From the IMG/VR virus record IMGVR_UViG_3300028897_000717, positions 1-54,931 of that record: a DNA stretch of 54,931 nucleotides, one strand, 5' to 3'. The DNA is from a virus (lineage: Duplodnaviria; Caudoviricetes). The notes beneath the pieces were generated by a model, which worked only from the letters and a program-made list of their open reading frames with translations, ran no database searches and was not told the DNA's origin. Positions 6,427 through 52,629 of this stretch are shown here, one piece after another; positions within the stretch are counted from its first letter, which is position 1, and each line of letters starts with the position of its first letter. The position numbers and the translations under genes were made by a program.

Positions 6427-7448
6427 TATATAAAATTTACGTGCTTTGGCGGTTCCTCTTTCAGCGCCCATAAATAACGGTTGCAGGCATCCATCCTACA
6501 CATCTTGCGACACTCTGTGCAATCAGGTGTGGGTTTGTTTATAGTCCACACCATATCGCTAAACGGTTGTTTCTTGATATTTCCATAGTAGAACGCCTTA
6601 TTCCCCAGGTGAGCGCTACATGACCATAATCCGCCCCCACTATCTAAGTATGCCCAGAAAGGTAGGGCATAGCATTTGTCATATGCACGCTCTGCATTGT
6701 CTGCCGTGTTTGTGCGGTATATTATGGGGAACCCATCAATTTCGACCCTCTCTGTCCAAGAGGAATAATCTATGTCTCCATATGGGGCATCACTTGAGGG
6801 GTGCTGCGAGTACGGTTTTATTACCAGATAATCCATGCCAATGTTTTTTGCCATTTTAGCCAACTCAAACACTTCGTCCCTATTTTCGGGCAACCAAAGC
6901 ATCTGAAAACCCAACACACACGGATATTGATTACGCTCCCTGATAGACGCCGCTCGTTCCATGTTTCTTAATGTCTGATAAAATTTGTTTTCCTTAACGC
7001 CGTGTAGTTTGGCATACGTGCCCGGAAATCCAGCATCCACGCTCGTCTTTATCCAGTGGCAGTACGGGAGTATCTTTTCGGCAAGTTCCTGTTTTAGCAA
7101 TCCGCCATTAGTGGTTATGGCCACATCTAAACCGCTTAACACGGCAGTTCTCACTATTTCCGCAATATCCCCATGAAGCAACGGTTCCCCTTCTCCCGCA
7201 AACATAACGCTCTTGGTGCCTACCCCTGCCATCTCACCGAATGTGGCCTCAAGCAACCCAATATCTAGTTTGCGTCTCTTGTATCCCATAAAGTCAAGGG
7301 CACAAAAGACACATCGGTGTTGGCATGCCCCTATCGGGCTAATCTCCACATATATTGGCCCTATCGGTTCTCCGTTCAACCACTTGGTGATTCTTTTGGG
7401 GTGAAATTGTAATTTTTGGCTATCAATATAATATTTATCCATTGACAC
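6426..7448 (-). CDS. radical SAM protein with SPASM/twitch-like C-terminus
   Basis: CQHRCVFC, GEGEP; N- and C-termini shared with 709..1812. Confidence 0.9.
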   Translation of the reverse strand: MSMDKYYIDSQKLQFHPKRITKWLNGEPIGPIYVEISPIGACQHRCVFCALDFMGYKRRKLDIGLLEATFGEMAGVGTKSVMFAGEGEPLLHGDIAEIVRTAVLSGLDVAITTNGGLLKQELAEKILPYCHWIKTSVDAGFPGTYAKLHGVKENKFYQTLRNMERAASIRERNQYPCVLGFQMLWLPENRDEVFELAKMAKNIGMDYLVIKPYSQHPSSDAPYGDIDYSSWTERVEIDGFPIIYRTNTADNAERAYDKCYALPFWAYLDSGGGLWSCSAHLGNKAFYYGNIKKQPFSDMVWTINKPTPDCTECRKMCRMDACNRYLWALKEEPPKHVNFI

Positions 7449-8427
7449 ATCTCAAATCAAAACGTCTACAACCATATTGACTATGTATATATTCATGGCA
7501 TGTGTTACATACTGTTATGCATATATCTATATCTACAGATTCAATGGGGTTCTGTTTTATACCTTCTAGATGATGACAATGGAGGCTTTTATTGTCCCCG
7601 CATATTTGGCATTCCCAACCATCACGCTCAAATACCATTTGGCGTAATTCGGGTTGCACTTCTCTTGCAGAATATTTTTCTCGTCCCCTGAGAAATTTTC
7701 GTTGATTAAAGGTGGGACATTCATTTTTGCATTCATCAGAGCAATATAATCGAGACTCTCCGTGATTTACTAAATGTGTTACTCGTATCCGGTTACGGAC
7801 AGCGTTTTGAGTGGGGGTAAACCAGATGCCACAATAAGCGCATTTTACTTGTAAAATATTTGTTTCTGTAGGTTTCCTCCGAACGTCTTCCATAAATTTG
7901 ATTTGTTTAGCATAAGTATCATATGCACATAATTGGCGTTTTTTTACACCCCCCTTCCAACTTGATGACTTTTCTTTTTTCCTTGAGTTTTTTTGGAACC
8001 AAAGCAACCAACAAGTCTTATTACAAAAGAAATGTTTATTTCTTTTGAGAGCATAAGGGGTAACCATCTTAGGTTTTTTGCAGTTACTACATGCTACTTT
8101 GATTTTGGTAGATTTTCGTTGATAATTCCCCTTGCTTAACCATGAACGAAAACATTTTTGGTCACAGAAAAAATGCTTATTACGTTTTGCACGAGAGGGG
8201 TGAACAAATTTTTTTGTACCACACTCGCCACATTGAACTTCAATGCTACTAAATTGAGGGTTATTTGTTCCTCTGGTATTTTCTGATAACCATAATGCTT
8301 GGCACTTACTGTCGCAAAAATGTCTTTTAGACCTAACCGCACGAGCAAGTGTTAATCTTTTTGGTTTATTGCAGTATGCACACAAGACTTTGACTCTTTC
8401 TTTTCTTTCTTTTGTATGCTGTCTCAT
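7435..8427 (-). CDS. HNH homing endonuclease with repeated Cys (Zn-binding) modules
   Basis: Repeats of CxxC...HFFCxxxC; C-terminal RDGWECQIC..LHCHH...CITVCNTCH. Confidence 0.85.
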   Translation of the reverse strand: MRQHTKERKERVKVLCAYCNKPKRLTLARAVRSKRHFCDSKCQALWLSENTRGTNNPQFSSIEVQCGECGTKKFVHPSRAKRNKHFFCDQKCFRSWLSKGNYQRKSTKIKVACSNCKKPKMVTPYALKRNKHFFCNKTCWLLWFQKNSRKKEKSSSWKGGVKKRQLCAYDTYAKQIKFMEDVRRKPTETNILQVKCAYCGIWFTPTQNAVRNRIRVTHLVNHGESRLYCSDECKNECPTFNQRKFLRGREKYSAREVQPELRQMVFERDGWECQICGDNKSLHCHHLEGIKQNPIESVDIDICITVCNTCHEYIHSQYGCRRFDLRCVNG

Positions 8428-38765: not shown

Positions 38766-39775
38766 ACCTCAAACCCACCCAATGTATCTATCACGTCCTG
38801 TATCTGGTTTATTACCGTTGTGTCCTGACTGCCCGCAAACAGTAACCCCACCGCCCGTTCATTTACCGTCCTTGGCGTGTGGTACATTTTGACGTTCAGA
38901 GTTGACTTTGATAATAGCGTGTCTGCCGAGCGGTTGAACAAGTTATTCAACCAGCACTCTTTTGGTGGCGCAACCTCTGTGTACGTTGTTACAAGACTGC
39001 CACTATCCCCTCCCGCACACATCGCCCCCGCCATTAATTGATTGACAAACAATGCATTGCGTCCGTTGCCATAGTCCACCTTAACGGTCACGTCCGTCTG
39101 TCGTATTTCGTCTATTGTATGTCCCGTGGTGCGCCCGTACTTTTGCACCTTCATGCCCAAGAACGCCTTACGGGTATTCACCACCTCGCCTATCTCAAGC
39201 ACCCTGTCATCAACAAACTCAGGTGTTGCCCACGCAAGGGCAGCATCCACAAAGTTTACACCCCCATCAAAGTATATCTCCTTGAAGCTGTGGAGGTGCG
39301 CTATCACGTCATCAGAATTACCATGATCGTAAATCCCCGGTTGCAGGATGGGATCCCCTATGTTGGCATTATTCTCTGCGGCGAGGATATGGTTGTTGCT
39401 CAGTATCATGGGTTTTCCGTCCTTCATTACCCACATTCCGAGGGTTCCTGCAGTGATGGCAGGGTGACCTATGCTTACGCCCCCAGGGGCGGGACGCCAT
39501 CTATCCTTCGGGTTTGCCTGAATGGTTTTTATCACGCCCGTTTCAATAACGTCCGTTCTAATATCATCACCCAAATCCTTGGGTACAATTTCATCTGGTT
39601 TTAAGTCCTGTGGAGGAATCTTTTTGCTTACCCCGACCACAACGCACAACTCATCTGTGCGCTTACCGCCCATTTCCTTGTATCCTATGCCCACGCTAAC
39701 CACGTTGGGTTTCCCAAGCAGTGTGTCTGCCCACGCCTTTTTTGCTATACGCATTTCATTTATGCTTTTGTTCAT
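38762..39775 (-). CDS. trypsin-like serine protease (Nal1-like)
   Basis: AGTLG, LSNNHI, VDAALA, GRTTG, GGDSGS. Confidence 0.85.
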   Translation of the reverse strand: MNKSINEMRIAKKAWADTLLGKPNVVSVGIGYKEMGGKRTDELCVVVGVSKKIPPQDLKPDEIVPKDLGDDIRTDVIETGVIKTIQANPKDRWRPAPGGVSIGHPAITAGTLGMWVMKDGKPMILSNNHILAAENNANIGDPILQPGIYDHGNSDDVIAHLHSFKEIYFDGGVNFVDAALAWATPEFVDDRVLEIGEVVNTRKAFLGMKVQKYGRTTGHTIDEIRQTDVTVKVDYGNGRNALFVNQLMAGAMCAGGDSGSLVTTYTEVAPPKECWLNNLFNRSADTLLSKSTLNVKMYHTPRTVNERAVGLLFAGSQDTTVINQIQDVIDTLGGFEV

Positions 39776-40197: not shown

Positions 40198-41223
40198 TCA
40201 CAAAATTATTTTTATTGTTTTACACACTTCCAATATATCCTTTTCCTCACATCTTGTGCTAACGGGAAGGCAAAGCCCTCGCCCATAGATATCCATGCTG
40301 TTCGGGTATTTTGTCAGGTCGGGTTCACAATATACTCCCTGCATGGGTAAGGGTTTGAATATTCGGCGTGTAGGCACACCATTTTCCTCTAGTTTGTATT
40401 GCAACCTATCCGCAGGCATTTCAAATGTGGCCGCCGTATACCACCAATTAGGTGAGACATGTTCCCCTATCGTTTCCTGAAAGCAAGCAACTTTACTTAG
40501 CTCGTTTCGATAAATTAAATTGAACTTCCTTTTTTTCGCAACGAACTCGTCCAGTCTGTGTAGTTGTGCCAACCCCATTGCGGCACTCAACCCCGTCATG
40601 CGGTAGTTGTATCCCAATATGCCCAACTCATTGTTTGTGCCGGGGTAGACCATTTTCCCGCCAACGGGAACGCCCACCAACGCTCCGCCCCCGCCCGTGG
40701 TGATAATCTTGTTCGCATTAAAACTAATAGCTGAATAGGGGAGGGAGCACACATCCTCGCCCCCGTTTATCGTTGTACCTAATGCTTGGCAGGCATCCCA
40801 TATCACTTGCGCTTCTGGGTTCTGATAATACCATGCCGAATCGCAAGGGTTGCCGTACAAATGGACGGGCATGTAGATATCGGCATCGTTAACCTCGTCA
40901 ACCTCCATTAACCACGTATCGGGATTCACGTCATGAAATTCAATCTTTAGTCCACAGTATTTTGCAACATTCGCTGTAGCGGGGAAAGTTAATGCGGGCA
41001 AATGTACGGTCTGGTAATCATATTTTTTCATGCATAGCAGGGCAAGGTGTAACGCCGCCGTGCCAGAATTGGTACACAACACATCACTTCCCAATCGCAA
41101 CCCAAGTGCCGCCTCAAACACGTCAATTGGTTCACCTATTGTAGATATCTCACCATCCAGTATTGCCTCGGATACGTTTTGACATTCAAGTTCGCCTAAG
41201 TTGCATTTATCCAGATAAATCAT
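40198..41223 (-). CDS. DegT/DnrJ PLP-dependent sugar aminotransferase (LegC-like)
   Basis: NSGTAALHLAL, PVHLYG, DACQALG, SFNANKIITTGGGG, GYNYRM. Confidence 0.93.
   Translation of the reverse strand: MIYLDKCNLGELECQNVSEAILDGEISTIGEPIDVFEAALGLRLGSDVLCTNSGTAALHLALLCMKKYDYQTVHLPALTFPATANVAKYCGLKIEFHDVNPDTWLMEVDEVNDADIYMPVHLYGNPCDSAWYYQNPEAQVIWDACQALGTTINGGEDVCSLPYSAISFNANKIITTGGGGALVGVPVGGKMVYPGTNNELGILGYNYRMTGLSAAMGLAQLHRLDEFVAKKRKFNLIYRNELSKVACFQETIGEHVSPNWWYTAATFEMPADRLQYKLEENGVPTRRIFKPLPMQGVYCEPDLTKYPNSMDIYGRGLCLPVSTRCEEKDILEVCKTIKIIL
40655..40670. repeat. 16-bp palindrome copy 7, TTCCCGCCAACGGGAA (intragenic)
   Basis: Exact arms. Confidence 0.9.
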
Positions 41224-41432
41224 ATTTCTATATCAAGTATGGGGCAATAATATTCACATTCCCCGTTCTCATAGGGATAACCAATAAAATAACTCTGGTA
41301 TTTTTCATCTGGGGTTGCCAAATAACGATAACAATTTTCGCGCAGTGGACAAACTTCAGGTTCCGTAATACCTATTTCTATTGATATTTCAAATTGAGAA
41401 TTATCCCCTCTACACATTGTTATATCAACCAT
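41220..41432 (-). CDS. small Cys-containing phage protein
   Basis: DITMC...CPLRENCYRY..QSYF..CEYY. Confidence 0.7.
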   Translation of the reverse strand: MVDITMCRGDNSQFEISIEIGITEPEVCPLRENCYRYLATPDEKYQSYFIGYPYENGECEYYCPILDIEI

Positions 41433-41595
41433 TGTTTCCCTCTTCTAGCTTTCGTACCTGTGCATCAAACCATTCTTCTTGTTTACGTTTGCGTTTCTCG
41501 TAGGCATTTATCCAATCTATTATTTCATTAATTTTTTTCTGACATTCATTTATCTTGTTATCAACATGACTCCAAACGTAGCTAATTTTTTCCAT
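41425..41595 (-). CDS. 56-aa hypothetical coiled-coil protein
   Basis: Manual translation MEKISYVWSHVDNKINECQKKINEIIDWIN...; fills the gap and overlaps both neighbours. Confidence 0.55.
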   Translation of the reverse strand: MEKISYVWSHVDNKINECQKKINEIIDWINAYEKRKRKQEEWFDAQVRKLEEGNNG

Positions 41596-41845
41596 CCATC
41601 ACCGCCTTCATCCCACCTAAGCACCTTGGACACTCCTGCCTTGCCTCATCAAGCGTGAGCCATTGCGTGGGTTTGGGTTGTTTATGTTGACAACCAGTAA
41701 ACAACCATACTAATAGCAATACTGGAATGCCAATCATTGCCACAGTAATAAGCCAATTAATGAACCTATTCCAATAATGGTTCTCAATTTTTACAATTTT
41801 ACCGTTTTCTTTTGTAATAGTCCGCCCAGACCTATATATATCCAT
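41582..41845 (-). CDS. hypothetical membrane protein
   Basis: One hydrophobic segment ending FTGC. Confidence 0.6.
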   Translation of the reverse strand: MDIYRSGRTITKENGKIVKIENHYWNRFINWLITVAMIGIPVLLLVWLFTGCQHKQPKPTQWLTLDEARQECPRCLGGMKAVMDGKN

Positions 41846-42951
41846 TACGTTTGCCTCCTTACCTTCACAAACTCTTCCTTCAACCTAAAAGGTTTACTCA
41901 CCACCACACCCTGCACCTCACGTGGCGTAAAATCCCCTGTCTCCTCTATCAAGTCCCAATTTGTGTGCTCGCGTATCACGTTCCAATAGTCCTTGTCGCT
42001 CATGCCGAAATAGTCGAGGAATTCTTTGTGATGTTCTATGGGGTATTCGTCATCGTACATCTCGCACTGTAAAATACATATGTCTCGTGTTTCAAGTTCA
42101 GCCCTGATAAGTATGCTTAAATCACTCGTGGCACGTCCGAAGCCGTATTTTACAAATTGGAGGTACTTATGAATCGACTCAAGGGAATCCGATATCTGGC
42201 ATCTTCTTTCTAGTGTACCAATACTTCTGACTGGTCTAACTTTCATGCCTATTGATTCAGCAAATGCGGCATGCTCTAGGGGGTTCCAATTTTCGAAATT
42301 GCTCCATTGTGTAAAAAATATCTTATCAAATTCGTCATCTGTTGGCATATCCCAATCAAGATGGTCATAATAATAGTGCTTCATTAACCATTCTTTCGAT
42401 ATGGGGTCTCGCCAATCTTTCTGCTCATTCCCTGAATATTCGACTTCACCATCTTCCCCGTAAACACAAATCGCTTGTTGCCCTAGTTGTGCAGTTTGAT
42501 TGATAACCACGGCAGACACGGCGGTTTCCCAAGGGTGTTTTGGCCTCCCCTGTTCAACAAAATATTTCCTAGCAAGGGATCGGTACTTTTCTTCTTTTAA
42601 CTCAATATTAATGCGCTGCCATGATCGACACATGTTTTCTCTGTTCCATTTCCCTATTTCAGTTTCCATGTGTGGCAAAACAATCATGAGTATAGGGTCT
42701 GCCCACCCCATTTTCTTTACTCTGTATGCAACCCAAATAGAATCCTTTCCACCACCGAAAGGTATAGTTGCAATAGGGTGCCTATTATGCAAAGAACGAA
42801 AATAATTCTGTCTAGCATTCCAATCTATTTCTTTCTTCCTTTTAGCCCAGGTACATGCTCCACAAATTTGTCCATCATACCAGGTGATGCGTGGTCTCGT
42901 ACTGGGGGTGAGGCATGATTTACAGAAAAAAACTTCGCTGCTTTGTGTCAT
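41845..42951 (-). CDS. N-acetyl sugar amidotransferase (WbpG/PseA/PtmG-like)
   Basis: CKSCLTPSTRPRI..CGAC, GGKDS PP-loop, YGEDG, KYGFGRAT. Confidence 0.85.
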   Translation of the reverse strand: MTQSSEVFFCKSCLTPSTRPRITWYDGQICGACTWAKRKKEIDWNARQNYFRSLHNRHPIATIPFGGGKDSIWVAYRVKKMGWADPILMIVLPHMETEIGKWNRENMCRSWQRINIELKEEKYRSLARKYFVEQGRPKHPWETAVSAVVINQTAQLGQQAICVYGEDGEVEYSGNEQKDWRDPISKEWLMKHYYYDHLDWDMPTDDEFDKIFFTQWSNFENWNPLEHAAFAESIGMKVRPVRSIGTLERRCQISDSLESIHKYLQFVKYGFGRATSDLSILIRAELETRDICILQCEMYDDEYPIEHHKEFLDYFGMSDKDYWNVIREHTNWDLIEETGDFTPREVQGVVVSKPFRLKEEFVKVRRQT

Positions 42952-43783
42952 ACTTGAAGCCGTATCTTTTATTCATGATGGACCTATAAAATCCCTTATG
43001 CCATTCTCGGCGCACATTTGCCCTTAAATTACATTGACCACATAAGGATATCAAATTAGTTGGTGCACAGTTTTGTTTATCATAATCTATGTGATGCAAA
43101 ACTATTAGAGTGTCCTTATGTTTGCAATATGGGTTTAAACATTGATTGCCATCACGCTCCTTGAGTTCGGATTTATATTCTTCATCTGTCCAGGCGTTAC
43201 AATATTGGAGTGACTTGGTTCCGCCATTCCATGCGGTATTGTTCGGTCCACACATCCACGCTGAACGGCATGAGCGGTCGCAAAAAAGATGGGCGTATTT
43301 CTCTATATATTTAGGTAACCTCTCAATTGTTTTCCCGCAACATTCACATTGCACTTCAATTAAAGTTGTACGTGCTCTCGCTAAACAATCCTTGCTACAA
43401 AAATGTTCATCATATTCATTGAATTGCGATTTCGACCGTCGTAGTAATTTCCCGCAATAACCACAATTAGTTTTAATTGGTCCACCGTGCCAATTCGGGT
43501 TATTCTCCGGGATGCTCTCCCACTTCTTAAAGCACCCCACACTACAAAACCAATTATTTGTTTTCTTATGCTTCAGTCTAAATTTGCCAACTTCAAATTT
43601 AACGCCACAATTAGAGCATACAACAGATATCTTTCTTTTAGGTTTTTTCCTATCAATGCTCATTAATTTATTTTTACATTGTTGAGAACAAGTTCGCCGT
43701 ACTTTAGTATTATAATGATTTTGTATCCATGCAAAATAATCACCGCAAATTTCACATGGTATGACCATTAACTCCTGTTTCAC
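42920..43783 (-). CDS. HNH homing endonuclease with Cys repeats
   Basis: CxxC..FCS..C repeats; HHIDYDKQNC..NLISLC..CN. Confidence 0.85.
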   Translation of the reverse strand: MKQELMVIPCEICGDYFAWIQNHYNTKVRRTCSQQCKNKLMSIDRKKPKRKISVVCSNCGVKFEVGKFRLKHKKTNNWFCSVGCFKKWESIPENNPNWHGGPIKTNCGYCGKLLRRSKSQFNEYDEHFCSKDCLARARTTLIEVQCECCGKTIERLPKYIEKYAHLFCDRSCRSAWMCGPNNTAWNGGTKSLQYCNAWTDEEYKSELKERDGNQCLNPYCKHKDTLIVLHHIDYDKQNCAPTNLISLCGQCNLRANVRREWHKGFYRSIMNKRYGFKYDTKQRSFFL

Positions 43784-44370
43784 ACATTTTCCCCATTCTT
43801 CACAACCGTGTTCTCATTTATCCTCGCCATCAGAAACACTGTGGCGTTCATTCCTATCAAACAATCGTTTCCTATTATTGCCCCGCCCCCTATGGTCGCC
43901 CCTGGCCCAACGTGAACGTTGCTCCCCAATCTGCAATCATGGCTCACTATTGCTCCTGTGTTTATCAGACAGTTATCGCCTATCCTCGCCCCCGTCTGCA
44001 CTATCGCCCCCTCTAGCACCTGACACCCTTCACCAAATATTGCACTTTCTGACACTACGGCGGAGGGATGTATCAGGGTTGGTAATTCGTATCCCGCCTT
44101 TTTTAATCGCCTGAACACTTTGCGCCTGACCAAATGTTTCATCGCCCCACCCACTCCGCACGTTCCCATGTGGTATCCCTGCTCATACCAATATTCTAAG
44201 TCTGTACGGTCGCCGTCCTGATAGAATACCATGTGCCATGTGGGGGAGTTTGCCAACAAGAGGTCTTTCACCACCATGGCGTGACCGCCCTTGCCGTATA
44301 TTAATATCTTATTCGGAAGCCAAACGCTTGACAGCCTCAATGATATCCTTCCTCCCTGGCAACACCTCAT
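43780..44370 (-). CDS. NeuD/PglD-family sugar acetyltransferase (start uncertain)
   Basis: IYGKGGHA, LIHPSA, hexapeptide repeats, VSHDC. Confidence 0.9.
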   Translation of the reverse strand: MRCCQGGRISLRLSSVWLPNKILIYGKGGHAMVVKDLLLANSPTWHMVFYQDGDRTDLEYWYEQGYHMGTCGVGGAMKHLVRRKVFRRLKKAGYELPTLIHPSAVVSESAIFGEGCQVLEGAIVQTGARIGDNCLINTGAIVSHDCRLGSNVHVGPGATIGGGAIIGNDCLIGMNATVFLMARINENTVVKNGENV

Positions 44371-45211
44371 TCTCTAGTTTCATTGAGCACGGCACTATGC
44401 CATCGTTCCCCAAGCGCATTGCCTTCTTGAGTATCCCCCGCTCCGCGCATTGTGCTATTGCCTCTGCGCCTATGCTTGCGAATGGGGTGCCTTCTTCTAC
44501 CGTTAGCAATTTGCCCGTTTTCCTTACAGAGTCAAACAATACATCTCCCGCCAACGGGAAAATGCGGGTAGGACATATAATATCCGTAGTTGTTTTATTC
44601 CCTATTGCATCAAGCACTTCTCTCAACATTTCGCCATATGTAAATATCGTCATGTCCGAATACGGATAGATGTAATTGTTTTTAAGTACAATGTCCTGTT
44701 CATATAATGTCTTGTATTCAAATACTATTTGTGGAGTTCTCTGTGGTTTGTATAACCCCAAAAAATATGTTTCCCTGTTTATGGCATATACCTTTATATT
44801 GGGTATCCCCACAAAGAACCGCTCAAGACTCTGACTGTGCGTGGGCCCGTATCCCCTGCGCCCGCCCATCGGGGTGCGTATCACTATGGGCAGGTCTATC
44901 CGCTTGCCGTACATTTCGGGTATCTTGCTCATGTGGTTTAGCAACTGGTCTAGGCAGAGTGTGAGAAAATCGCCCATCATGATTTCAAGAATTATCTTGT
45001 GCCCGTTTAATGCCAAACCTATTGCGAGGCCCGTTATCGCCTGTTCGCTTATAGGGGTGTTGAGTACTTGAGTTGGAAATTCGTTCACTAGTCCCTTGGT
45101 GACCCCGAACGCCCCGCCCTGTGGTGAGGCAACGTCTTCACCCAGTAATATGCATTGCGGGTCGGAGAGTTCCCGCCTAAGTTCGTTGCGTATGGCGTGT
45201 TTTATTTTCAT
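44309..45211 (-). CDS. TPP-dependent dehydrogenase E1 beta-like subunit
   Basis: LGEDV, NTPISEQ, GPTHSQ, VEEG. Confidence 0.9.
   Translation of the reverse strand: MKIKHAIRNELRRELSDPQCILLGEDVASPQGGAFGVTKGLVNEFPTQVLNTPISEQAITGLAIGLALNGHKIILEIMMGDFLTLCLDQLLNHMSKIPEMYGKRIDLPIVIRTPMGGRRGYGPTHSQSLERFFVGIPNIKVYAINRETYFLGLYKPQRTPQIVFEYKTLYEQDIVLKNNYIYPYSDMTIFTYGEMLREVLDAIGNKTTTDIICPTRIFPLAGDVLFDSVRKTGKLLTVEEGTPFASIGAEAIAQCAERGILKKAMRLGNDGIVPCSMKLENEVLPGRKDIIEAVKRLASE
44545..44560. repeat. 16-bp palindrome copy 8, CTCCCGCCAACGGGAA (1 mismatch, intragenic)
   Basis: 15/16 match to the consensus. Confidence 0.8.
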
Positions 45212-45444
45212 AGTTTTTCTAGCTTTTTGCCACACCACGGACAAAACAACCATTCTCTTAGGTATGCTTCATTCGGAGCAATAAATACACCTCTTGCTTG
45301 AGGATGACTTAAATGTTTTATCCATCCATCACATCGACAAAATGTTATGCTAATTTTATCTTTGCTGTTCAAGCCAATCCTCCGCCCACAGGCGTTCCAA
45401 TTCTTCTTTGCTTCTTGTCTCCTTGCCTCTACTGTGGGGGCCAA
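45208..45444 (-). CDS. small Zn-finger hypothetical protein (start uncertain)
   Basis: FCPWCGKKL; fills the gap between E1 alpha and beta. Confidence 0.45.
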   Translation of the reverse strand: MAPTVEARRQEAKKNWNACGRRIGLNSKDKISITFCRCDGWIKHLSHPQARGVFIAPNEAYLREWLFCPWCGKKLEKL

Positions 45445-46120
45445 GACGGTTTTTCCAAAATTCCATTATATATGGTTCTTGATTTACTCTTGATAATTGA
45501 ATATTTGCTTTGATTTTTCTTGGCCATTCATTTGGATAACTATCATAAAATTGGTGCCACATTCCAAAGGTATCAGCGATATTACCTATAACGGGATAAA
45601 ACTCTTGTTGTTGTGTATACATTGCCCATGCATTGGCTTCGATAACAATAATTAATGGAACCTTAAAGGCATCAATAAAATTCATCGTCTCATACACCAC
45701 TCCCTGCCCCATCGTGCCATCCCCGATAAAGCATACCACAACGTTTTTCTGCTTGCGTCGCTTGAACCCCATAGCCACGCCCGCTGCTATTGGCACCATT
45801 CCCCCCTGTATGCCATTGGAGTAGAATCCCTCAGCGTGTAAGTGCTGGCTTCCGCCTATCCCTCCACAACACCCATTTGGTTTTCCTTTGAGTTCGGCAA
45901 GCAACCCGTCAAAATCGCCCGTCCATGCAAGATAGTGCCCATGCCCCCTGTGGTTGCTGAATATCACGTCACCCTTCTTTAAGGCGTTCATCACGCATAC
46001 GGCAGTCCACTCCTGACCCAAACATGTATGAAACGTGCCGGGGATAGTCGGGTCGGCAAGAATCTTTTGCTCAAAGTCCCGTATGGCAAGCGCCTGTTTT
46101 ACCAAGTCCTCATGTTCCAT
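45356..46120 (-). CDS. TPP-dependent dehydrogenase E1 alpha-like subunit
   Basis: GQE, NHRGHGH, GGSQH, GDGT...N, HS. Confidence 0.9.
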   Translation of the reverse strand: MEHEDLVKQALAIRDFEQKILADPTIPGTFHTCLGQEWTAVCVMNALKKGDVIFSNHRGHGHYLAWTGDFDGLLAELKGKPNGCCGGIGGSQHLHAEGFYSNGIQGGMVPIAAGVAMGFKRRKQKNVVVCFIGDGTMGQGVVYETMNFIDAFKVPLIIVIEANAWAMYTQQQEFYPVIGNIADTFGMWHQFYDSYPNEWPRKIKANIQLSRVNQEPYIMEFWKNRLGPHSRGKETRSKEELERLWAEDWLEQQR

Positions 46121-46458
46121 CTATCTATTGCTTCCTCTTCGTTTACCGCACGGGCACCAAGCGCACCGCACACTTTACACTTTACCCTGAATCCCGTATC
46201 TGTTGCCTTGAGTACGTGTGGGTTGTTGACAGTCAGTAGGTCAATACCTAACTCAAGTGAGGCACAAAACGGGCAGGGGTCTGTTTTCACCTTCACCCCC
46301 GTTGGCCAATGGCGTTTTTCAAATTGCGCTAGCATGAGTTCAAGTTGTTCATGCTCCTCCCGCTCTGGTGTGGTCCATCGTTCCTTGTCGTGCAGTTCCC
46401 GTCGACGGGAAACCTTTTCATGATATTCCTTCTCTGTTTTAATCGGTTCCATAATCAT
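46099..46458 (-). CDS. HigA-N-like domain fused to a Lar-like Zn ribbon
   Basis: PIKTEKEY...FEKRHWP; PCPFC...VKCKVCGALG...EEAIDRWN.R. Confidence 0.6.
   Translation of the reverse strand: MIMEPIKTEKEYHEKVSRRRELHDKERWTTPEREEHEQLELMLAQFEKRHWPTGVKVKTDPCPFCASLELGIDLLTVNNPHVLKATDTGFRVKCKVCGALGARAVNEEEAIDRWNMRTW
46396..46411. repeat. 16-bp palindrome copy 9, TTCCCGTCGACGGGAA (intragenic)
   Basis: Perfect palindrome. Confidence 0.9.
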
Positions 46459-47554
46459 AAAACTCCTTTCTCACACTCAACCCCTCATTGAGTTTTGCCT
46501 TGATAATTTCATGTATCTTCCTTGCCGCACCCTTACCCATATATTTTAGTGGATAGTCATTTCTTACCCATTGTTGGAAGGTCTCTTTAAATAGTAACCT
46601 AAGCGCCCAGCGAATACCCTTAATGTTGCACTCTATAACGCTCAATGCCATTAACCTTCCCTTCTGTCTATCCCCAACATTAATGGTCGGCACCCCTATG
46701 GCGGGCATTTCGTATATCCCCGCACTTGAGTTCCCTATCAGTGCATCCGATGCCCTACACCGCTCAAGAAACTGTTCTCGGTTCATATCGAGAAAATGCC
46801 AGTTGTGCCGATTCTCACACACCTTCTTAAACGCCTCGTTTATCCACCGCCCCCCACCATCGGCATTGGCACTGGCAAAGTATATGGTCTCGTCTCGTTT
46901 TTCCAATGCGTCCAGTAACAAATGCACTTCCTTTTGTTGCTCAAGTCTGTCCGTTAGCGTGTTCGGGTGCCACGCCACAACGAATTGCCCGTATCGCCTG
47001 CCCAACCACTTGCGCTTTTTAAGGCCGTCCAGTGCAATAAAACCCACGTTAAACACTTTGTCTGGAAATTCGCCTAGCTGCATGACTCGCTTGCTATATT
47101 CCTCACAGTATGTGAAATGCAGGGACGCCAACTTTGTTATGCAATGGCGCCATGAGTCATCAAGACTTCCCGCCGTAACCTCACCCCCAGATATATGCGC
47201 AATGGGCACCCGCAACATTCTTGCCGCCATACAACATGCTAGGGTTTCACTTCTGTCGCCCAGCACCACAAGCACACCAGGGTTCTGTCTTGCAAGCGCA
47301 CGGACGCACATATCTATGGCATTACCCGCACTGGCGGCCACTGCCAACTCACTATCGCTATCGTAAAGAATGTCAAACCGCTCACTTATGGGAAAATCAA
47401 TATCAGAGATAGTTAGACCAAACGAGGGAGCCAAGTGTGAACCCGTTACAAAAAGACATAGTTCCGTTTCGGGGTCGTCATGTACGCATTTGACAAGTGG
47501 ACGAATAAGGCCCCAATCAGCACGCGAAGTGGTAAGCACTCCTACGCGGAACAT
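46439..47554 (-). CDS. neuC: hydrolysing NDP-sugar 2-epimerase (NeuC/LegG family)
   Basis: SRADWG, TGSHL, LGDRSE, HISGGE, IGNSSAG, GDRQKGR. Confidence 0.93.
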   Translation of the reverse strand: MFRVGVLTTSRADWGLIRPLVKCVHDDPETELCLFVTGSHLAPSFGLTISDIDFPISERFDILYDSDSELAVAASAGNAIDMCVRALARQNPGVLVVLGDRSETLACCMAARMLRVPIAHISGGEVTAGSLDDSWRHCITKLASLHFTYCEEYSKRVMQLGEFPDKVFNVGFIALDGLKKRKWLGRRYGQFVVAWHPNTLTDRLEQQKEVHLLLDALEKRDETIYFASANADGGGRWINEAFKKVCENRHNWHFLDMNREQFLERCRASDALIGNSSAGIYEMPAIGVPTINVGDRQKGRLMALSVIECNIKGIRWALRLLFKETFQQWVRNDYPLKYMGKGAARKIHEIIKAKLNEGLSVRKEFYDYGTD

Positions 47555-48213
47555 GTTAACCCTCCATCCACTACCAAACTTACTCCCGTCATATACGCAC
47601 CTGCCTCGCTTGCGAGAAACAATACGGGCCCCACCAAATCTTTGGGTTCCGCCATGCGCCCAAGGGGAACTTTTGCCTGATATTTTTTCACGAACCTAAA
47701 ATCCTGCTTGGCATCCAGTACCCCTCCCGGCAAAATAGCATTCACCCTTATCCCGTATTGCCCATACTTACACGCCAAATGCTTGGTTAATGCCACCACG
47801 CCCCCTTTTGCCAAAACGTACTCCCCGCTAGGCGGTTTCACGGTTGTGCCCCAATAAAGCGAAGGATCGTGCCCTGCCACACCGTATATGCTACCAAAAA
47901 GTATAATACTACCTTGTACCTTGTGCTTTAACATGCTTTCACACGCCATTTCTGCCGTTTCAAACCATCCCAATGTATGCGCCTCAAAATCCGTCGGGTA
48001 CGTACAATTAACAAACACGTCTATCTTCTGTGCTTTATTGAATAGCTGTTGTCTACTTGCGGGATACCCTATGTTGAATGGGATATCCCCGCCATCCTTA
48101 TCGGCATTTATGACATCGGCATTCACCTCTTTGAATCCATGAACCAAGGCTTTCCCTATTAAACCACTGCCACCAGCTATGATTACTCTCTTGTTTTCTA
48201 GGTCGTTAAACAT
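47542..48213 (-). CDS. SDR oxidoreductase (PtmA-like)
   Basis: GGSGLIG, SIYG, YxxxK (YVLAK), IRVNAILPGG, VDGG. Confidence 0.9.
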   Translation of the reverse strand: MFNDLENKRVIIAGGSGLIGKALVHGFKEVNADVINADKDGGDIPFNIGYPASRQQLFNKAQKIDVFVNCTYPTDFEAHTLGWFETAEMACESMLKHKVQGSIILFGSIYGVAGHDPSLYWGTTVKPPSGEYVLAKGGVVALTKHLACKYGQYGIRVNAILPGGVLDAKQDFRFVKKYQAKVPLGRMAEPKDLVGPVLFLASEAGAYMTGVSLVVDGGLTCSA

Positions 48214-48334
48214 ATTTTATTATCAAAAATGCACTCACCCAACCAACAGCAATAGCATTCCACCATCGTTTTGGTTCTTGCACTAAAAAAATAACATTAA
48301 CAATAAGTAATAAAATCAATACAACATCCCGCAT
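48206..48334 (-). CDS. 42-aa membrane peptide
   Basis: AAGGAG RBS; MRDVVLILLLIVNVIFLVQEPKRWWNAIAVGWVSAFLIIKYV. Confidence 0.55.
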   Translation of the reverse strand: MRDVVLILLLIVNVIFLVQEPKRWWNAIAVGWVSAFLIIKYV

Positions 48335-48345
48335 ATTTTTCTCCT

Positions 48346-48361
48346 TTCCCGTCAACGGGAA
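48346..48361. repeat. 16-bp palindrome copy 10, TTCCCGTCAACGGGAA (between a stop codon and an RBS)
   Basis: Exact arms, intergenic. Confidence 0.9.
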
Positions 48362-48658
48362 TCAATCCCTCACAGCACCTTTTGGTAAACTATGGTCTAT
48401 CTTCCCAACTGGTTCAAACAATGAAAACCCCAAAAAATAAATAGGGGCAACAATGGTTTCGATTAAAATCACACTCCAAACAACATTCCCCCATATTACT
48501 TCATATTCTATGTTTTCATTACGTTTACTTCCTTCATTTAACAACCCATAGGTACCGTAAGTAACCCCATCTATTGTTTTACGATCACCACATCCATATA
48601 AACTTGTCGTTGCTACAAATAGAAATATTAAAAATATGACAAACATTTTTACTTTCAT
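48362..48658 (-). CDS. putative phage lipoprotein/membrane protein
   Basis: LYGC lipobox; second hydrophobic segment. Confidence 0.7.
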   Translation of the reverse strand: MKVKMFVIFLIFLFVATTSLYGCGDRKTIDGVTYGTYGLLNEGSKRNENIEYEVIWGNVVWSVILIETIVAPIYFLGFSLFEPVGKIDHSLPKGAVRD

Positions 48659-49380
48659 GGTTCCTCCTTTTTTAAAATATACCTCTTCATGAGCGCCTCA
48701 CATACATGGAACCCAACCTCGTCATCTATATCTACAAACGACCATGGGGGCATGATGAACGGCATTGAAAAGCCGTCCAGTGCAGTTTTTTTGGATTCGT
48801 CCTTCAACCAGGATGCCCTGTACACAAATATGCTATTGTTCTGATCCCACGTCTGCGGAAATTCCTGCCTACTTAATCCGTACTTTATCTTAACCCGCCT
48901 GTAACTCTCCGTGCCCTCGTCAAATTCCACAATGTTCCAATATGGACTTCGCCTAGACTCGACCACGCTATACACGCATGCAAAATTATGTTCCCGCCAT
49001 AAATCGAACGCTCCCTGTATGTGTTCCTTGGTACGCAAAGGGTTACATGCATCAAGGTCTATAATACAGTCATATTCCACACACTGTATCCGCTCCATTT
49101 CCTTTACGGCATATCTCAGGGTCGCCATTTTCGGGGTGTCGTCCCGTGAAACGTATTCGGGGCGTCCTATAACCGCACACCTCATCATGCTGTCCAGTTT
49201 TCGTCCCGCAAGCAGTTGCACCTCAAGGTCGTCAGAGCATACAACTATATGCTGACCCGCCCACTCTTTTGCTTGGTCTATCGAATATTCAATTAAGGGG
49301 CGATTGCATAAAACCCTTGTGTGTTTGTTTGCCAGACCCCTGGAACCCGCTCTGGCCAGAACTGTGGTTAGGACATTCAT
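48655..49380 (-). CDS. neuA: CMP-nonulosonic acid synthetase (acylneuraminate cytidylyltransferase)
   Basis: ARAGSRGLANK, RP, NPLR, RQ, DIDD. Confidence 0.9.
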   Translation of the reverse strand: MNVLTTVLARAGSRGLANKHTRVLCNRPLIEYSIDQAKEWAGQHIVVCSDDLEVQLLAGRKLDSMMRCAVIGRPEYVSRDDTPKMATLRYAVKEMERIQCVEYDCIIDLDACNPLRTKEHIQGAFDLWREHNFACVYSVVESRRSPYWNIVEFDEGTESYRRVKIKYGLSRQEFPQTWDQNNSIFVYRASWLKDESKKTALDGFSMPFIMPPWSFVDIDDEVGFHVCEALMKRYILKKEEP

Positions 49381-49615
49381 TGCAACCTCCAAATTTAATC
49401 CTTGGTATGGGGACTTCCTTTATAGTGTTGTCCTCAAGATTTAGCTCGTAAAGTTTGCCTGTGAACGTGCGCCCGTCCAGATACTCCTGGCTCTCCTGCG
49501 TCCACATGTGAACCGCAGCATGTTCAGGGGAGTCTACGATACCCTGTTGGACGGGTTGATTCTGTATCCCACCCATTGTCCACGTCATAAAAATGACCAA
49601 AAGATAAAGTTTCAT
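49289..49615 (-). CDS. hypothetical protein
   Basis: GAAAGGAGG RBS; hydrophobic N-terminus. Confidence 0.55.
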   Translation of the reverse strand: MKLYLLVIFMTWTMGGIQNQPVQQGIVDSPEHAAVHMWTQESQEYLDGRTFTGKLYELNLEDNTIKEVPIPRIKFGGCNECPNHSSGQSGFQGSGKQTHKGFMQSPLN

Positions 49616-49628
49616 TGATTCCCTCCTT

Positions 49629-49835
49629 TCATACCTCCCATTTTTCGGCAAGATGCCGTTCTTTCACAATTTCGATAAATCGGTTGTACTCAAGCCAACG
49701 CTTTAGTTGACGGGCACATTCGGGACAATACATGCTCGCCTTGCCCTCCTCGCCCCGCTCACGCAATAAATAGCTAGGCGTTCTGCCAACGTTTAGATAG
49801 TTTCCACATGCGTGGAAGTTTCTGCACTTTTGCAT
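49629..49835 (-). CDS. small Zn-finger hypothetical protein
   Basis: C....C and CPEC. Confidence 0.55.
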   Translation of the reverse strand: MQKCRNFHACGNYLNVGRTPSYLLRERGEEGKASMYCPECARQLKRWLEYNRFIEIVKERHLAEKWEV

Positions 49836-49838
49836 GGT

Positions 49839-51815
49839 CTAATTCCCGCCAACGGGAAAAGGTAAAAAATCCTGTGCTAAATCGTCTATCGGCATCTCAC
49901 AGTAGTCAGGGTTTAACTCTATCCCTATGGCCCTGCGCCTGAGTTTCTTGGCTACTATCAGGGTGCGCCCGCTTCCCATGAACGGGTCAAGGACTGTGCA
50001 GGGGACAATTTTTGCATTCTTAAGATTATTGAGTACGTCATAGCCTTGCTTTAAAATACAGCTACAGGTAGGCTTCCAACCGATGGTCTTGGATTCAGGT
50101 GGGTTTATCATTGTTCCACTTGCGGGAGTTCCAGCTGCATAGCCCATTCCCATCTTTTCACGCCTGTCTGACCGCCTTATAACCATTGGTTTATTTTCTG
50201 TAATCCTCTTCCACGGGCTCCCACACTCAGGGCAGCACCCTTTCTCGCTTGTGCCAGCCAATATGCACGTTCTTGGTATTTCTTCTGGAAATGTGGCAAA
50301 ATGGGCTTCCGGAAAAGGCTGTGTCGTGATTGTCCAGACGGAGCGTTTGTTGCGTGTATCAGTATAAATTGGGGTTCCATCTGGTTTATATGCTCCACTA
50401 TGACCCTTTATACCGGATCCTCCACCAGCCATTTTTGAAGTATAATATTTTCTTAAACCTTGAGCATAAGGGCTTTTTATTTTATCTGGAGCATTTGGGC
50501 CAGTCGGATAATTAGCCTTTTCTTTCACCGCATCCGCATCATAGAAATACCTTGCGCTCTTCGTCAGCAGGAATATGTATTCATGGCTCCTAGTGGGCCT
50601 GTCTGTGACCGATTCGGGCATGGGGTTCGGCTTCGACCATATTATATCAGACCTCAACCACCACCCGTCTGCTTGCAGGGCAAGGGCTACACGCCACGGG
50701 ATGCCGCAGAGGTCTTTTGGTTTGAGATTGACATTTGGGAGCGGATTGGTTAAACTTTGGTATGCCGAGTCCAAAGAAACCTTGTCCAACTTGTGATGGT
50801 TTGATGCATCCGCAGGCTTCTCAATGCCACAAGTGCAAACCGACTTATCTAAGGACTGCTGAACACCGTCAATTAATGAGTAACCGCAAAAAAGGCAGTA
50901 AGCATGCTTACCCCTCTGCCAGCACTCGCCCAGAAGTCGCTGAAAAAATAAGTCAGGCATGGACTCCAGAAATGCGTGAAGCAGCTCGTCTTCGGGGTAA
51001 AAGAAACGCTCTGAATCCCGAATGGAGGTTAAAATGTGGTTCTCCAAAAGAGAAAAATCCGATGTGGCAAAATGGTAATTCTCTAATTCCTTACTCTCCT
51101 GGTTGGGCAAGGAAAGTGAAGAAATTAGCTTGGAAACGAGCAAACCACCGTTGCGAAATCTGTTTTTCTGATAAACCTCACGACACCCATCACATAGATT
51201 TTCGCAAAGACAACCACAATCTTGAGAATCTCCAAGTGCTCTGCCGGAAGTGCCACAAGAAACTTCACATGGAACACCTCCACGCTCAAACGATTTAGAT
51301 AAACCAGGGTTTTTATGATGTTCCTTGTACGCCCTGCCACTTCCCATATAAGAATCTCCGAGATTTAAAAAAACCGTCCCGTCCTTCCTCAGCACCCTTC
51401 GCACTTCCCTGAATATCTCTACCATGTGCTGTATATATAGCTCCGGGGTGGGTTCAAGGCCGAGAGAGCCCTTCCACGCGTTGCATTTGAGGCAGAATTG
51501 ACCCGCTATAGTTCTTTCTCTTGTTTCCTTTTTCACACCGTGCGCTCCATAAATGGCTCCGGCATGTTGTCCATCATCTATACATTTGGGGCCATTTTCC
51601 CATTCATGCTCACATCCCTGCGAGTGATCAATTTCACAGCCACAAGGCCATATCTGCGGCTCAATCCCATAATCCCTAAGCCCCCAATATGGAGGGCTAG
51701 TAACCACACAATGCACACTCTCCCCCTCCATCTGCTTCAGTACATCAAGCACATGGCCATTGTAGATTGTGATTCCTGCGTGGTCGTAATGCGGTTTTAT
51801 TTTAATTCCCGCCAA
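49839..51815 (-). CDS. N4/N6 DNA methyltransferase (beta class) with a ~190-aa insertion
   Basis: TSPPYW, NLGDSY, KPKDL.GIPWR, HFATFP, LDPFMGSG. Confidence 0.92.
   Translation of the reverse strand: MAGIKIKPHYDHAGITIYNGHVLDVLKQMEGESVHCVVTSPPYWGLRDYGIEPQIWPCGCEIDHSQGCEHEWENGPKCIDDGQHAGAIYGAHGVKKETRERTIAGQFCLKCNAWKGSLGLEPTPELYIQHMVEIFREVRRVLRKDGTVFLNLGDSYMGSGRAYKEHHKNPGLSKSFERGGVPCEVSCGTSGRALGDSQDCGCLCENLCDGCREVYQKNRFRNGGLLVSKLISSLSLPNQESKELENYHFATSDFSLLENHILTSIRDSERFFYPEDELLHAFLESMPDLFFQRLLGECWQRGKHAYCLFCGYSLIDGVQQSLDKSVCTCGIEKPADASNHHKLDKVSLDSAYQSLTNPLPNVNLKPKDLCGIPWRVALALQADGWWLRSDIIWSKPNPMPESVTDRPTRSHEYIFLLTKSARYFYDADAVKEKANYPTGPNAPDKIKSPYAQGLRKYYTSKMAGGGSGIKGHSGAYKPDGTPIYTDTRNKRSVWTITTQPFPEAHFATFPEEIPRTCILAGTSEKGCCPECGSPWKRITENKPMVIRRSDRREKMGMGYAAGTPASGTMINPPESKTIGWKPTCSCILKQGYDVLNNLKNAKIVPCTVLDPFMGSGRTLIVAKKLRRRAIGIELNPDYCEMPIDDLAQDFLPFPVGGN
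49843..49858. repeat. 16-bp palindrome copy 11, TTCCCGCCAACGGGAA (3' end of the MTase)
   Basis: Exact arms. Confidence 0.9.
50762..51298 (+). CDS. HNH endonuclease nested antisense inside the methyltransferase
   Basis: CPTC..CHKC, NUMOD-like segment, KNPMW.NG, RCEIC...THHIDFRKDNHNLENLQVLCRKCH. Confidence 0.85.
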   Translation: MPSPKKPCPTCDGLMHPQASQCHKCKPTYLRTAEHRQLMSNRKKGSKHAYPSASTRPEVAEKISQAWTPEMREAARLRGKRNALNPEWRLKCGSPKEKNPMWQNGNSLIPYSPGWARKVKKLAWKRANHRCEICFSDKPHDTHHIDFRKDNHNLENLQVLCRKCHKKLHMEHLHAQTI

Positions 51816-52629
51816 CGGGAAACCTCGCCTTGAACTCCAATATTTTTGACAGCAACCGTGTCGCCTCCTCCACGTTTGGTGACGGTTCCCGCCCTGCCTT
51901 AACGCAATCGAAAAAGTATTCCAACTGCCTTAAAAACATTTCGTCCCGTTCCTCTTCGCTCACGCGCAAATCTATATACTCCCCGTCAGCAACTATGTAC
52001 CGTTCCTCTTTATCCGCTGCCATATCCAGTGCTATATGACTACTACACCCGCCCTCGTGAAACAGCATAAAATTTGACCAAAACCGTTCGGTGTAGCCAT
52101 GCATTGCTAAAATCGGCCCGAAAAGCCATGAAGCGTAATCAAGTTCGTGGGACAGCTCAAGCATTACGTGGTTCAAATCCCTCTGCCCCGGCCATTTGCT
52201 GGCATCTGTGGCACACACTATGGTTGCGCCCCTTATGCCCCCTGCCTGCCCCTTTAATTCCTGCAGGCGTGGGTGAAAGCGCATGTTGTATCCAACCATG
52301 GATATCTTGCGGTGTTTAAAGAGTTTTATGCGCAACGCCAATAAACCCTTGGTCTGGTTGGATACGGGTTTCTCCACAAAAACGTGACTTGGCAACATTG
52401 CACATAGCAGGGCCCGCCCCGTATGGTATTGCGTGGGGTTTGTAATAAAGCAGATATCGGGTTTCAATTGCTCCACAAAATCCCATGAGTTGGTTTCATA
52501 AACACCAATAGCAGACCCGTTGCCGTTCCCAGAACGGAAGGCGTATAACTCATGTTCTGGAAAGTTGTCCCGAAGCAGGCGGACATGACGTTTTCCTATG
52601 CTACCGAGACCGCAAAATAAAATATTCAT
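51802..52629 (-). CDS. Gfo/Idh/MocA oxidoreductase (PtmF-like)
   Basis: GLGSIGKRH, FVEKP, GYNMRFHP, ELSHELD. Confidence 0.9.
   Translation of the reverse strand: MNILFCGLGSIGKRHVRLLRDNFPEHELYAFRSGNGNGSAIGVYETNSWDFVEQLKPDICFITNPTQYHTGRALLCAMLPSHVFVEKPVSNQTKGLLALRIKLFKHRKISMVGYNMRFHPRLQELKGQAGGIRGATIVCATDASKWPGQRDLNHVMLELSHELDYASWLFGPILAMHGYTERFWSNFMLFHEGGCSSHIALDMAADKEERYIVADGEYIDLRVSEEERDEMFLRQLEYFFDCVKAGREPSPNVEEATRLLSKILEFKARFPVGGN
51806..51821. repeat. 16-bp palindrome copy 12, TTCCCGCCAACGGGAA (oxidoreductase 3' end / MTase start)
   Basis: Exact arms. Confidence 0.9.

Follow-up and report, generated by a model that had tools for sequence, protein, structure and literature searches.

IMG/VR virus record IMGVR_UViG_3300028897_000717, which comprises 54,931 bases and has an estimated completeness of 30%, was analysed over its whole length, referred to here as the window. 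Coding capacity lies almost entirely on the minus strand, which holds 49 of the 52 open reading frames (ORFs) of at least 150 amino acids. One of these encodes a phage DNA methyltransferase (methylase) of 658 amino acids, and within it, on the opposite strand, a complete gene for an HNH endonuclease is wholly nested, without a single stop codon interrupting the methylase frame across it. A preliminary description of this stretch had proposed that the nuclease gene is a homing endonuclease that inserted backwards into a tolerant loop of the methylase, needs neither intron nor intein, and is under selection to keep the host frame open. Here we describe the anatomy of the two genes, the recurrence of the same arrangement in related loci, the constraints acting on each strand and the distribution of the insert among methylases, and we weigh the explanations that might account for them.

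The methylase gene and its insert

The host gene matches the Pfam family PF01555 (N6_N4_Mtase) in three stretches, with an E-value of 1.1e-40 and a score of 140.4 bits against a cut-off of 26.7, and matches phrog_67 in PHROG at 4.1e-68. Methyltransferases of the beta class are recognized by the order of their motifs, with (S/D)PPY at the N-terminus and the S-adenosylmethionine-binding FxGxG at the C-terminus, and the window methylase follows this order, SPPY occupying residues 40–43 and the C-terminal D610, F612 and G614 being invariant in an alignment of methylases. In an alignment of 45 methylases, including 19 insert-bearing ones, SPPY, NLGDSY, KPKDL and the C-terminal D, F and G residues are invariant or nearly so. 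The unusual insert that had been noticed between NLGDSY and KPKDL is indeed present: in 95 insert-free relatives these two motifs are separated by a variable loop of 26–56 amino acids (median 36), compared with about 207–208 amino acids in the window methylase. An AlphaFold2 (AF2) model of the 658-residue protein has a confident core, in which 191 residues reach a predicted local distance difference test (pLDDT) value of at least 90, and a methylase-frame insert in which pLDDT is below 50 at residues 161–202, 218–309 and 311–360. When the gene was compared with distant phage methylases using blastn, all 10 of 10 matches began at query nucleotides 1090–1093, that is, at codon 364 to 365 and directly past the insert, which places the inserted cassette right beside the most conserved DNA of the methylase family.

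A second variable region of the gene is formed by an N-terminal Cys-rich module, which is present in some methylase homologues and absent from others; at 51505–51654, contigs from two metagenome runs (X2 and X3) have 187 other letters replacing 148 nucleotides of this module.

The antisense HNH gene

The plus-strand ORF extends over 50735..51298 and would specify 187 amino acids from a TTG codon, or 178 from a conserved ATG at 50762. It matches 12 HNH families in PHROG (best E-value 1.1e-9), and the profile of its own family matches, at 1.1e-5, a PDB entry for a group II intron maturase (6me0) in the HNH (En) domain. There are 81 homologues at E <=1e-3, with up to 72% identity over the full length. 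In an alignment of 19 sequences the CxxC..CxxC ribbon is invariant, together with C131, C134, H143, H144, N156, C161, C164, H165 and H169, and the protein has the catalytic His/Asn/His residues and the CxxC...CxxC zinc site of the HNH endonuclease superfamily (PF01844, His-Me finger). The AF2 model of the protein has a mean pLDDT of 80.5. The HNH protein is real and conserved, and the clean antisense gene of 178 codons reported earlier is upheld by the ORFs themselves, by PF01555 on the enclosing frame and by the PHROG families. A tblastn search with the HNH protein against 50,697 phage records returned nothing at E <=1e-5 and identified no cultured phage with the element, which is common in uncultured phages from environmental metagenomes.

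Among the three plus-strand ORFs of at least 150 amino acids in the window, only the HNH gene has a family match, in agreement with the original view that it is the sole convincing gene on this strand. The other two, at 39038–39604 (188 amino acids) and 46623–47366 (247 amino acids), are nested antisense in minus-strand genes, the latter within a gene for UDP-GlcNAc 2-epimerase, and Pfam matched neither. A second HNH-like region, with a weak match (E-value 6e-4, 24% identity), occurs at 7477–7650 on the minus strand, within a 330-amino-acid ORF (7435–8427) that has no Pfam family.

Recurrence in related loci

Related loci, denoted by L and a number, were found in three DNA collections using the HNH protein alone as the query, and for this reason their recovery carries no ascertainment bias with respect to the methylase frame. 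The window and 90 loci make up the 91 scored rows, several of which represent one contig present in two collections. The antisense frame in the methylase register is stop-free and part of a long ORF in 79 of the 91 rows, and PF01555 was found on the ORF covering the HNH gene in each of the 15 read-through loci that were scanned. In every locus examined the insert falls between motifs of the NLGDSY and KPKDL types, with the HNH gene on the opposite strand. The preliminary description had advocated looking for antisense HNH genes at this loop in other methylases, and genes of the same family do occur there. Judged by the PF01555 matches in all 15 loci and by the conservation of catalytic motifs, the gene that hosts the insert appears to be a live methylase.

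The preliminary description had also anticipated that close homologues would lack stops in the methylase frame; this holds for the 79 open rows and fails for the remaining 12, in which the frame is not kept open and the methylase register contains 1–7 stops. At five loci (L005, L007, L083, L161 and L163) the HNH gene occupies the same site and is flanked by N-terminal and C-terminal parts of a methylase in different frames, an arrangement from which we judge that the methylase is split or dead. The contigs of L150 and L165 hold only the C-terminal part of a methylase, L147 has only a weak match to the N-terminal part, and L119 and L129 gave no match. Since split and open rows occur at one site, insertion there can end either in read-through or in a split gene.

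Several variations on the theme were seen among these loci. At many loci, among them L001, L088, L089 and L097, the HNH ORF has no stop codon of its own past the conserved core, and ends instead at the antisense of the methylase NLGDSY codons, 20 nucleotides into the motif. The 816-amino-acid methylase of L093 (891–3341, minus strand) carries the antisense HNH gene, and another part of this gene gives weak matches to Intein_splicing (28.9 bits, below the cut-off) and LAGLIDADG_3 (26.3 bits), so that a single gene may host two different selfish elements. L003 has a long C5 methylase next to an N6/N4 methylase, with a repetitive and enlarged middle and no antisense ORF with family resemblance. 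Two cultured phages in which the methylase matched in two pieces, phiPSA1 and BgManors32, proved to have ordinary methylases of about 410 amino acids.

Selection on the two reading frames

The absence of antisense stops across the 178 HNH codons of the window, as originally reported, is exact: there are none in the methylase register, and 5 and 10 in the other two antisense frames. The window HNH gene has a GC content of 46%. Shuffling its codon order gave an expectation of 11.3 stops, with no stop-free sequence among 2000 shuffles, and permuting synonymous codons gave an expectation of 9.5, with none among 1000, so that the earlier estimate of about 8 was of the right order.

Codon usage was analysed in 57 non-duplicate embedded HNH copies, with 163 columns used for diversity. 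Nucleotide diversity at HNH codon positions 1, 2 and 3 is 0.319, 0.316 and 0.580 respectively, as would be expected under the purifying selection that had been proposed for the plus-strand ORF. The third position of an HNH codon is the second position of a methylase-frame codon, and because variation peaks there, the HNH reading is the one selected for its amino acids. Amino-acid diversity is 0.43 for the HNH protein compared with 0.70 for the methylase-frame peptide, the least conserved reading of all frames. The same 57 sequences contain no stops in the methylase register, whereas the remaining antisense frames hold 195 and 455; under synonymous permutation 4.3 stops are expected per sequence, with a median probability of zero stops of 0.003.

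How the frame is kept open can be read from individual codons. A methylase-frame stop requires an HNH codon ending in TT, CT or TC to be followed by a codon starting with A. Such risky codons (xTT, xCT, xTC) were used ahead of an A-starting codon in 0 of 744 cases, compared with 36–84% use elsewhere, and phenylalanine, for which both codons are risky, preceded an A-starting codon in 0 of 86. Over 9,858 junctions, the stop-forming trinucleotides TTA, CTA and TCA were each absent at this phase against expectations of 145.5, 183.1 and 43.9 (372 in total), and the control trinucleotides ATA, GTA, ACA and GCA occurred at the same phase 124, 56, 256 and 281 times. The only explanation that we can offer for this pattern would be selection for translation through the insert, and the earlier suggestion that the host frame is kept open by selection is thereby strengthened, both by the 79 open rows and by this deficit. 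On the evidence of the diversity values, the methylase-frame peptide is selected only for its lack of stops and not for its sequence; the structural model suggests that it is a passive linker and probably disordered.

Promoter and predicted expression

A sigma-70-like promoter lies immediately upstream of the HNH start codon (Table 1). At the homologous place, 39 of 60 embedded loci have a -10 hexamer with at least five of six consensus matches; 37 of these 39 also have a TGn extension, and in 35 the hexamer stands exactly 6 nucleotides before the ATG, compared with a background rate for the extended -10 motif of 0.00028 per position. Three loci (L153, L154 and L158) have a Shine-Dalgarno leader instead of such a promoter. 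The spacing between the -10 hexamer and the ATG puts the start of transcription at the A of the ATG, and a leaderless mRNA is therefore predicted for the HNH gene from known promoter geometry. To judge from the conservation of this promoter, the cassette has its own expression signals.

Distribution of the insert among methylases

When the 120 closest relatives of the C-terminal part of the window methylase were classified by motif patterns, 95 had a short loop, 2 had a long insert (one being the window itself) and 23 were unscorable; the insert is thus absent from 95 of 97 scorable close relatives. A tree of the C-terminal parts of 49 insert-bearing and 95 insert-free methylases required 19 changes of the trait, at least 4 of them forced by well-supported branches. 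A reduced tree, made from 20 insert-bearing and 22 insert-free rows after 14 long-branch rows had been dropped and the remainder randomly sampled, required 5 changes, at least 3 of them forced, and placed the window methylase as sister to the insert-free P0083 with a support of 97. For these same 42 rows, the approximately unbiased (AU) test rejected a single clade of insert-bearers (p = 0.00037). On this phylogenetic evidence, insert-bearing methylases are scattered among insert-free ones and are not one clade. Identity between HNH proteins is uncoupled from identity between their methylases (R2 = 0.045 for 595 pairs from 35 loci), and mean identity is 58% for the HNH protein compared with 51% for the host gene part.

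Sequencing runs containing 50300–51800 comprised four DNA metagenomes, three of which may be the source of this DNA, and no RNA run. One contig of run X2 joins position 50693 to 51391 and so skips 697 nucleotides. It has low depth and 88% likeness, and on one side is anchored by only 30 letters; most likely it represents a relative of the methylase gene that lacks the insert and comes from another organism, and it was not used as evidence.

A probable mobile cassette read through by its host gene

We consider it very probable that the window carries an antisense, self-promoted, homing-type HNH cassette that is read through by the methylase. The cassette, of approximately 0.6 kb, would be a mobile unit in which a promoter is followed by a leaderless ATG and the ORF of a zinc-ribbon HNH endonuclease, inserted in reverse orientation into a variable loop at the surface of a phage DNA methyltransferase of the beta class. 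The promoter of the cassette would drive the HNH gene on the strand opposite to the methylase, and this gene would behave as a selfish element of the homing type, one that has moved between diverged methylases at a single site and may still be active in homing. Neither an intron nor an intein would be needed for this, as selection on synonymous codons and dipeptides would keep the methylase frame free of stops. Ribosomes on the methylase mRNA would then pass through some 200 codons of unconserved and probably disordered peptide before reaching the C-terminal catalytic half, leaving an enlarged methylase that would presumably remain active.

Several observations weigh against this interpretation. 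Concerning the nuclease itself, the match of the plus-strand ORF to Pfam HNH (PF01844; E-value 5e-4, 20.6 bits) is slightly below the cut-off of 21.4 bits, and Foldseek found no match of the HNH model in the PDB at E <=0.001, although its top weak matches are to HNH nucleases, Cap5 (E-value 0.05) and 5h0m (E-value 0.32). At -10 the window has TAAACT, a weaker hexamer than that of the family consensus. The 12 rows with broken frames imply that read-through is not obligatory for the persistence of the element. The trees came from a quick search and include several long-branch rows; the insert-free set was picked as relatives of the window methylase, which favours insert-free neighbours for the window; and counts of changes on a tree cannot separate gains from losses. 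Finally, no pair of loci among the 595 has HNH proteins more than 85% identical in diverged methylases, and recent transfer is therefore not demonstrated.

Alternative explanations

It is unlikely that the HNH gene is instead a fixed or domesticated module that no longer homes, having been acquired once or a few times, inherited with the methylase and lost repeatedly, and with the nuclease or the antisense transcription now of use to the phage, for instance by pairing the nuclease with the nearby terminase or by regulating expression of the methylase. The terminase genes TerS and TerL do lie 1–3 kb away in the window, but no terminase family was found among the scanned flanking ORFs of 15 other read-through loci, which instead encode helicases, NinG, C5 methylases and the like. 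A domesticated module would also accommodate the lack of near-identical HNH copies in diverged methylases, the inability of tree change counts to tell gain from loss, and the greater conservation of the HNH protein relative to the host gene part. Against these stand the absence of the insert from nearly all scorable close relatives, the uncoupling of HNH and methylase identity and the rejection of a single clade by the AU test. The cassette also adjoins the most conserved DNA of the gene, a position typical of homing targets.

An unrecognised self-splicing intron, or a translational bypass element, with an antisense endonuclease would mean that the insert is absent from the mature methylase. 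Phage group I introns often carry HNH genes (PMC11855218), and ribozyme cores may be too divergent for Rfam to recognize. We nevertheless regard this explanation as very improbable, since Rfam returned nothing at E <=1 on either strand of 49800–51900, and since a spliced or bypassed segment needs no avoidance of stops, yet 79 of the 91 rows are stop-free with a codon signature specific to stops. Within the 621-nucleotide insert region, the HNH ORF with its stop takes up 540 nucleotides and the promoter 29, leaving no room for a separate ribozyme core. The window element thus has neither the Rfam match nor the core space of a group I or group II intron with a homing endonuclease gene.

Removal of the insert at the protein level, by an intein or otherwise, is more improbable still. 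The insert is in frame inside a conserved enzyme, and the L093 methylase has the weak intein-like and LAGLIDADG matches elsewhere in its gene described above; but Pfam found PF01555 alone and no intein (Hint) family in the window methylase, the insert is followed by L364/K365 and not by Cys, Ser or Thr, the methylase-frame peptide is too poorly conserved to hold conserved splicing blocks, and it is predicted to be disordered. These results, together with the Rfam search, agree with the earlier statements that the insert shows no intein termini and depends on neither intron nor intein. Lastly, although long antisense ORFs can arise randomly in GC-rich DNA, and the GC-rich L005 and L083 do have an open in-register antisense frame, a frame left open by chance or base composition in a decaying methylase is effectively refuted, judging by the relatives' frames and the stop-specific codon avoidance: the window gene is not GC-rich and is expected to contain 9.5–11.3 stops, in read-through loci it is without exception the methylase register that is open (this register having 1–7 stops in the 12 broken rows), and the methylase motifs are still conserved. 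Intron, intein, bypass and chance were accordingly all rejected.

Comparison with known systems

The closest precedent is the ShiLan domain (Gosselin et al. 2023, PMC9957025; Arsenault, Gosselin and Gogarten 2025, PMC11855218), described as an insertion of about 200 codons in actinobacteriophage DNA methylases that introduces no stop in the host frame. Its HNH gene is read in the third frame of the same strand, from a GTG start 18 bp into the insert with no ribosome-binding site detected; it shows no features of introns or inteins, and has a patchy distribution for which an AU test rejects one clade (PMC11855218). The window element shares with ShiLan a length of about 200 codons, a location at a conserved site within a phage methylase, the absence of methylase-frame stops, a zinc-finger HNH gene in another frame, the lack of intron and intein features, an in-frame peptide that is predicted with low confidence, a patchy distribution with AU rejection of one clade, and element distances uncoupled from those of the host gene. 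It differs in that the HNH gene lies on the opposite strand in every locus examined, not in a third frame of the same strand where it would be translated from the methylase transcript, and in the conservation of an extended -10 promoter positioned for a leaderless ATG; the words promoter, antisense and opposite strand are absent from the ShiLan paper. The HNH family has no close relative in the 50,697 phage records, and the element is common in uncultured phages of environmental metagenomes. The element is best described as an opposite-strand, self-promoted variant of the published ShiLan hidden HNH gene, and the idea is not wholly new. Our literature search found no description of an antisense homing endonuclease gene that is read through by its host, although the ShiLan paper's survey of similar elements in other phages and prokaryotes may hold opposite-strand cases.

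Homing endonucleases encoded in introns and inteins likewise place a site-specific nuclease gene in a conserved site of a useful gene that must be spared, and differ in that here neither RNA nor protein splicing is involved, harm being avoided by keeping the other strand translatable. Free-standing phage homing endonucleases can split a host gene, as mobE reportedly does with nrdA of Aeromonas phage Aeh1 (Crona et al. 2010, PMC3045599). The resemblance to the present case lies in an HNH gene that interrupts a conserved enzyme gene, brings expression signals of its own and uses neither intron nor intein, and the split-methylase relatives L005, L007, L083, L161 and L163 resemble that arrangement; in contrast, the window and most related rows are read through and not split, and the element is antisense to its host. 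Long antisense overlapping gene pairs have been proposed in bacteria such as E. coli O157:H7 (PMC9927249) and similarly encode two proteins on opposite strands, over more than 170 codons in the present case, but here one partner is an invading gene of known fold and not a de novo ORF, and the second frame is selected only to be stop-free.

On balance we lean, with some reserve, towards the view that these loci represent a distinct and widespread class of splicing-free homing element, in which an antisense cassette of approximately 0.6 kb, with an extended -10 promoter and a leaderless HNH gene, would occupy one permissive loop of beta-class methyltransferases and persist through the policing of synonymous codons and dipeptides, a split host gene being the alternative outcome at the site.

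Homing endonuclease genes have been thought to survive within genes only by means of introns or inteins, or else to reside between genes. ShiLan hinted at a third way, of which the window and approximately 80 related rows show a cleaner form, with the element on the opposite strand, its own promoter and a measurable signature. If this is true, a parasite gene can be maintained inside an essential-type gene in a third way, besides introns and inteins, and the arrangement would rank with the best-supported cases of long antisense gene overlap in prokaryotic viruses. The system would also be a natural one for asking how a DNA sequence evolves when one strand is selected for its protein and the other has only to stay free of stops, how much random peptide an enzyme loop tolerates, and whether convergent transcription links parasite expression to that of the host. 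For annotation, the consequence is that gene callers give either the methylase or the HNH gene, and never both.

Features and neighbouring genes

Table 1. Coordinates of the methylase, its antisense cassette and the split relatives. Positions are those of the window unless a locus is given.
Feature	Position	Strand	Basis or remark
DNA methyltransferase, beta-class N6/N4 (PF01555), 658 amino acids, insert read through	49839..51815	-	ORF, Pfam and motif alignment
Methylase N-terminal core, residues 1-156, NLGDSY at end	51348..51815	-	Alignment; AF2 pLDDT >90 for most of residues 10-40 and 120-150
Insert region in methylase frame, residues 157-363: native-loop remnants and antisense cassette; stop-free, poorly conserved, predicted disordered	50727..51347	-	Alignment, AF2
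Methylase C-terminal core, L364/KPKDL to stop codon	49839..50726	-	Alignment, AF2, blastn
Sigma-70-like promoter: TTGACA, 17 nucleotides, TAAACT; ends 5 nucleotides before HNH ATG	50728..50756	+	10 of 12 consensus matches
HNH endonuclease gene, 178 amino acids and stop; N-terminal CxxC..CxxC zinc ribbon and HNH core	50762..51298	+	PHROG, Pfam, homologue alignment, PDB profile match, AF2
Loci with methylase judged split or dead	L005:1481-4019; L163:1370-3600; L007:2173-3866; L083:244-2113; L161:3-2064		Same HNH family, same site

Directly downstream of the terminase and methylase genes, the minus strand of the window carries a run of sugar-nucleotide genes at 40198–49392. These encode a DegT/DnrJ aminotransferase, a PglD-like hexapeptide acetyltransferase, E1/transketolase-like subunits, a UDP-GlcNAc 2-epimerase, a short-chain dehydrogenase and a CTP_transf_3 cytidylyltransferase, and by these family assignments the run looks like a pathway of the nonulosonic-acid type.

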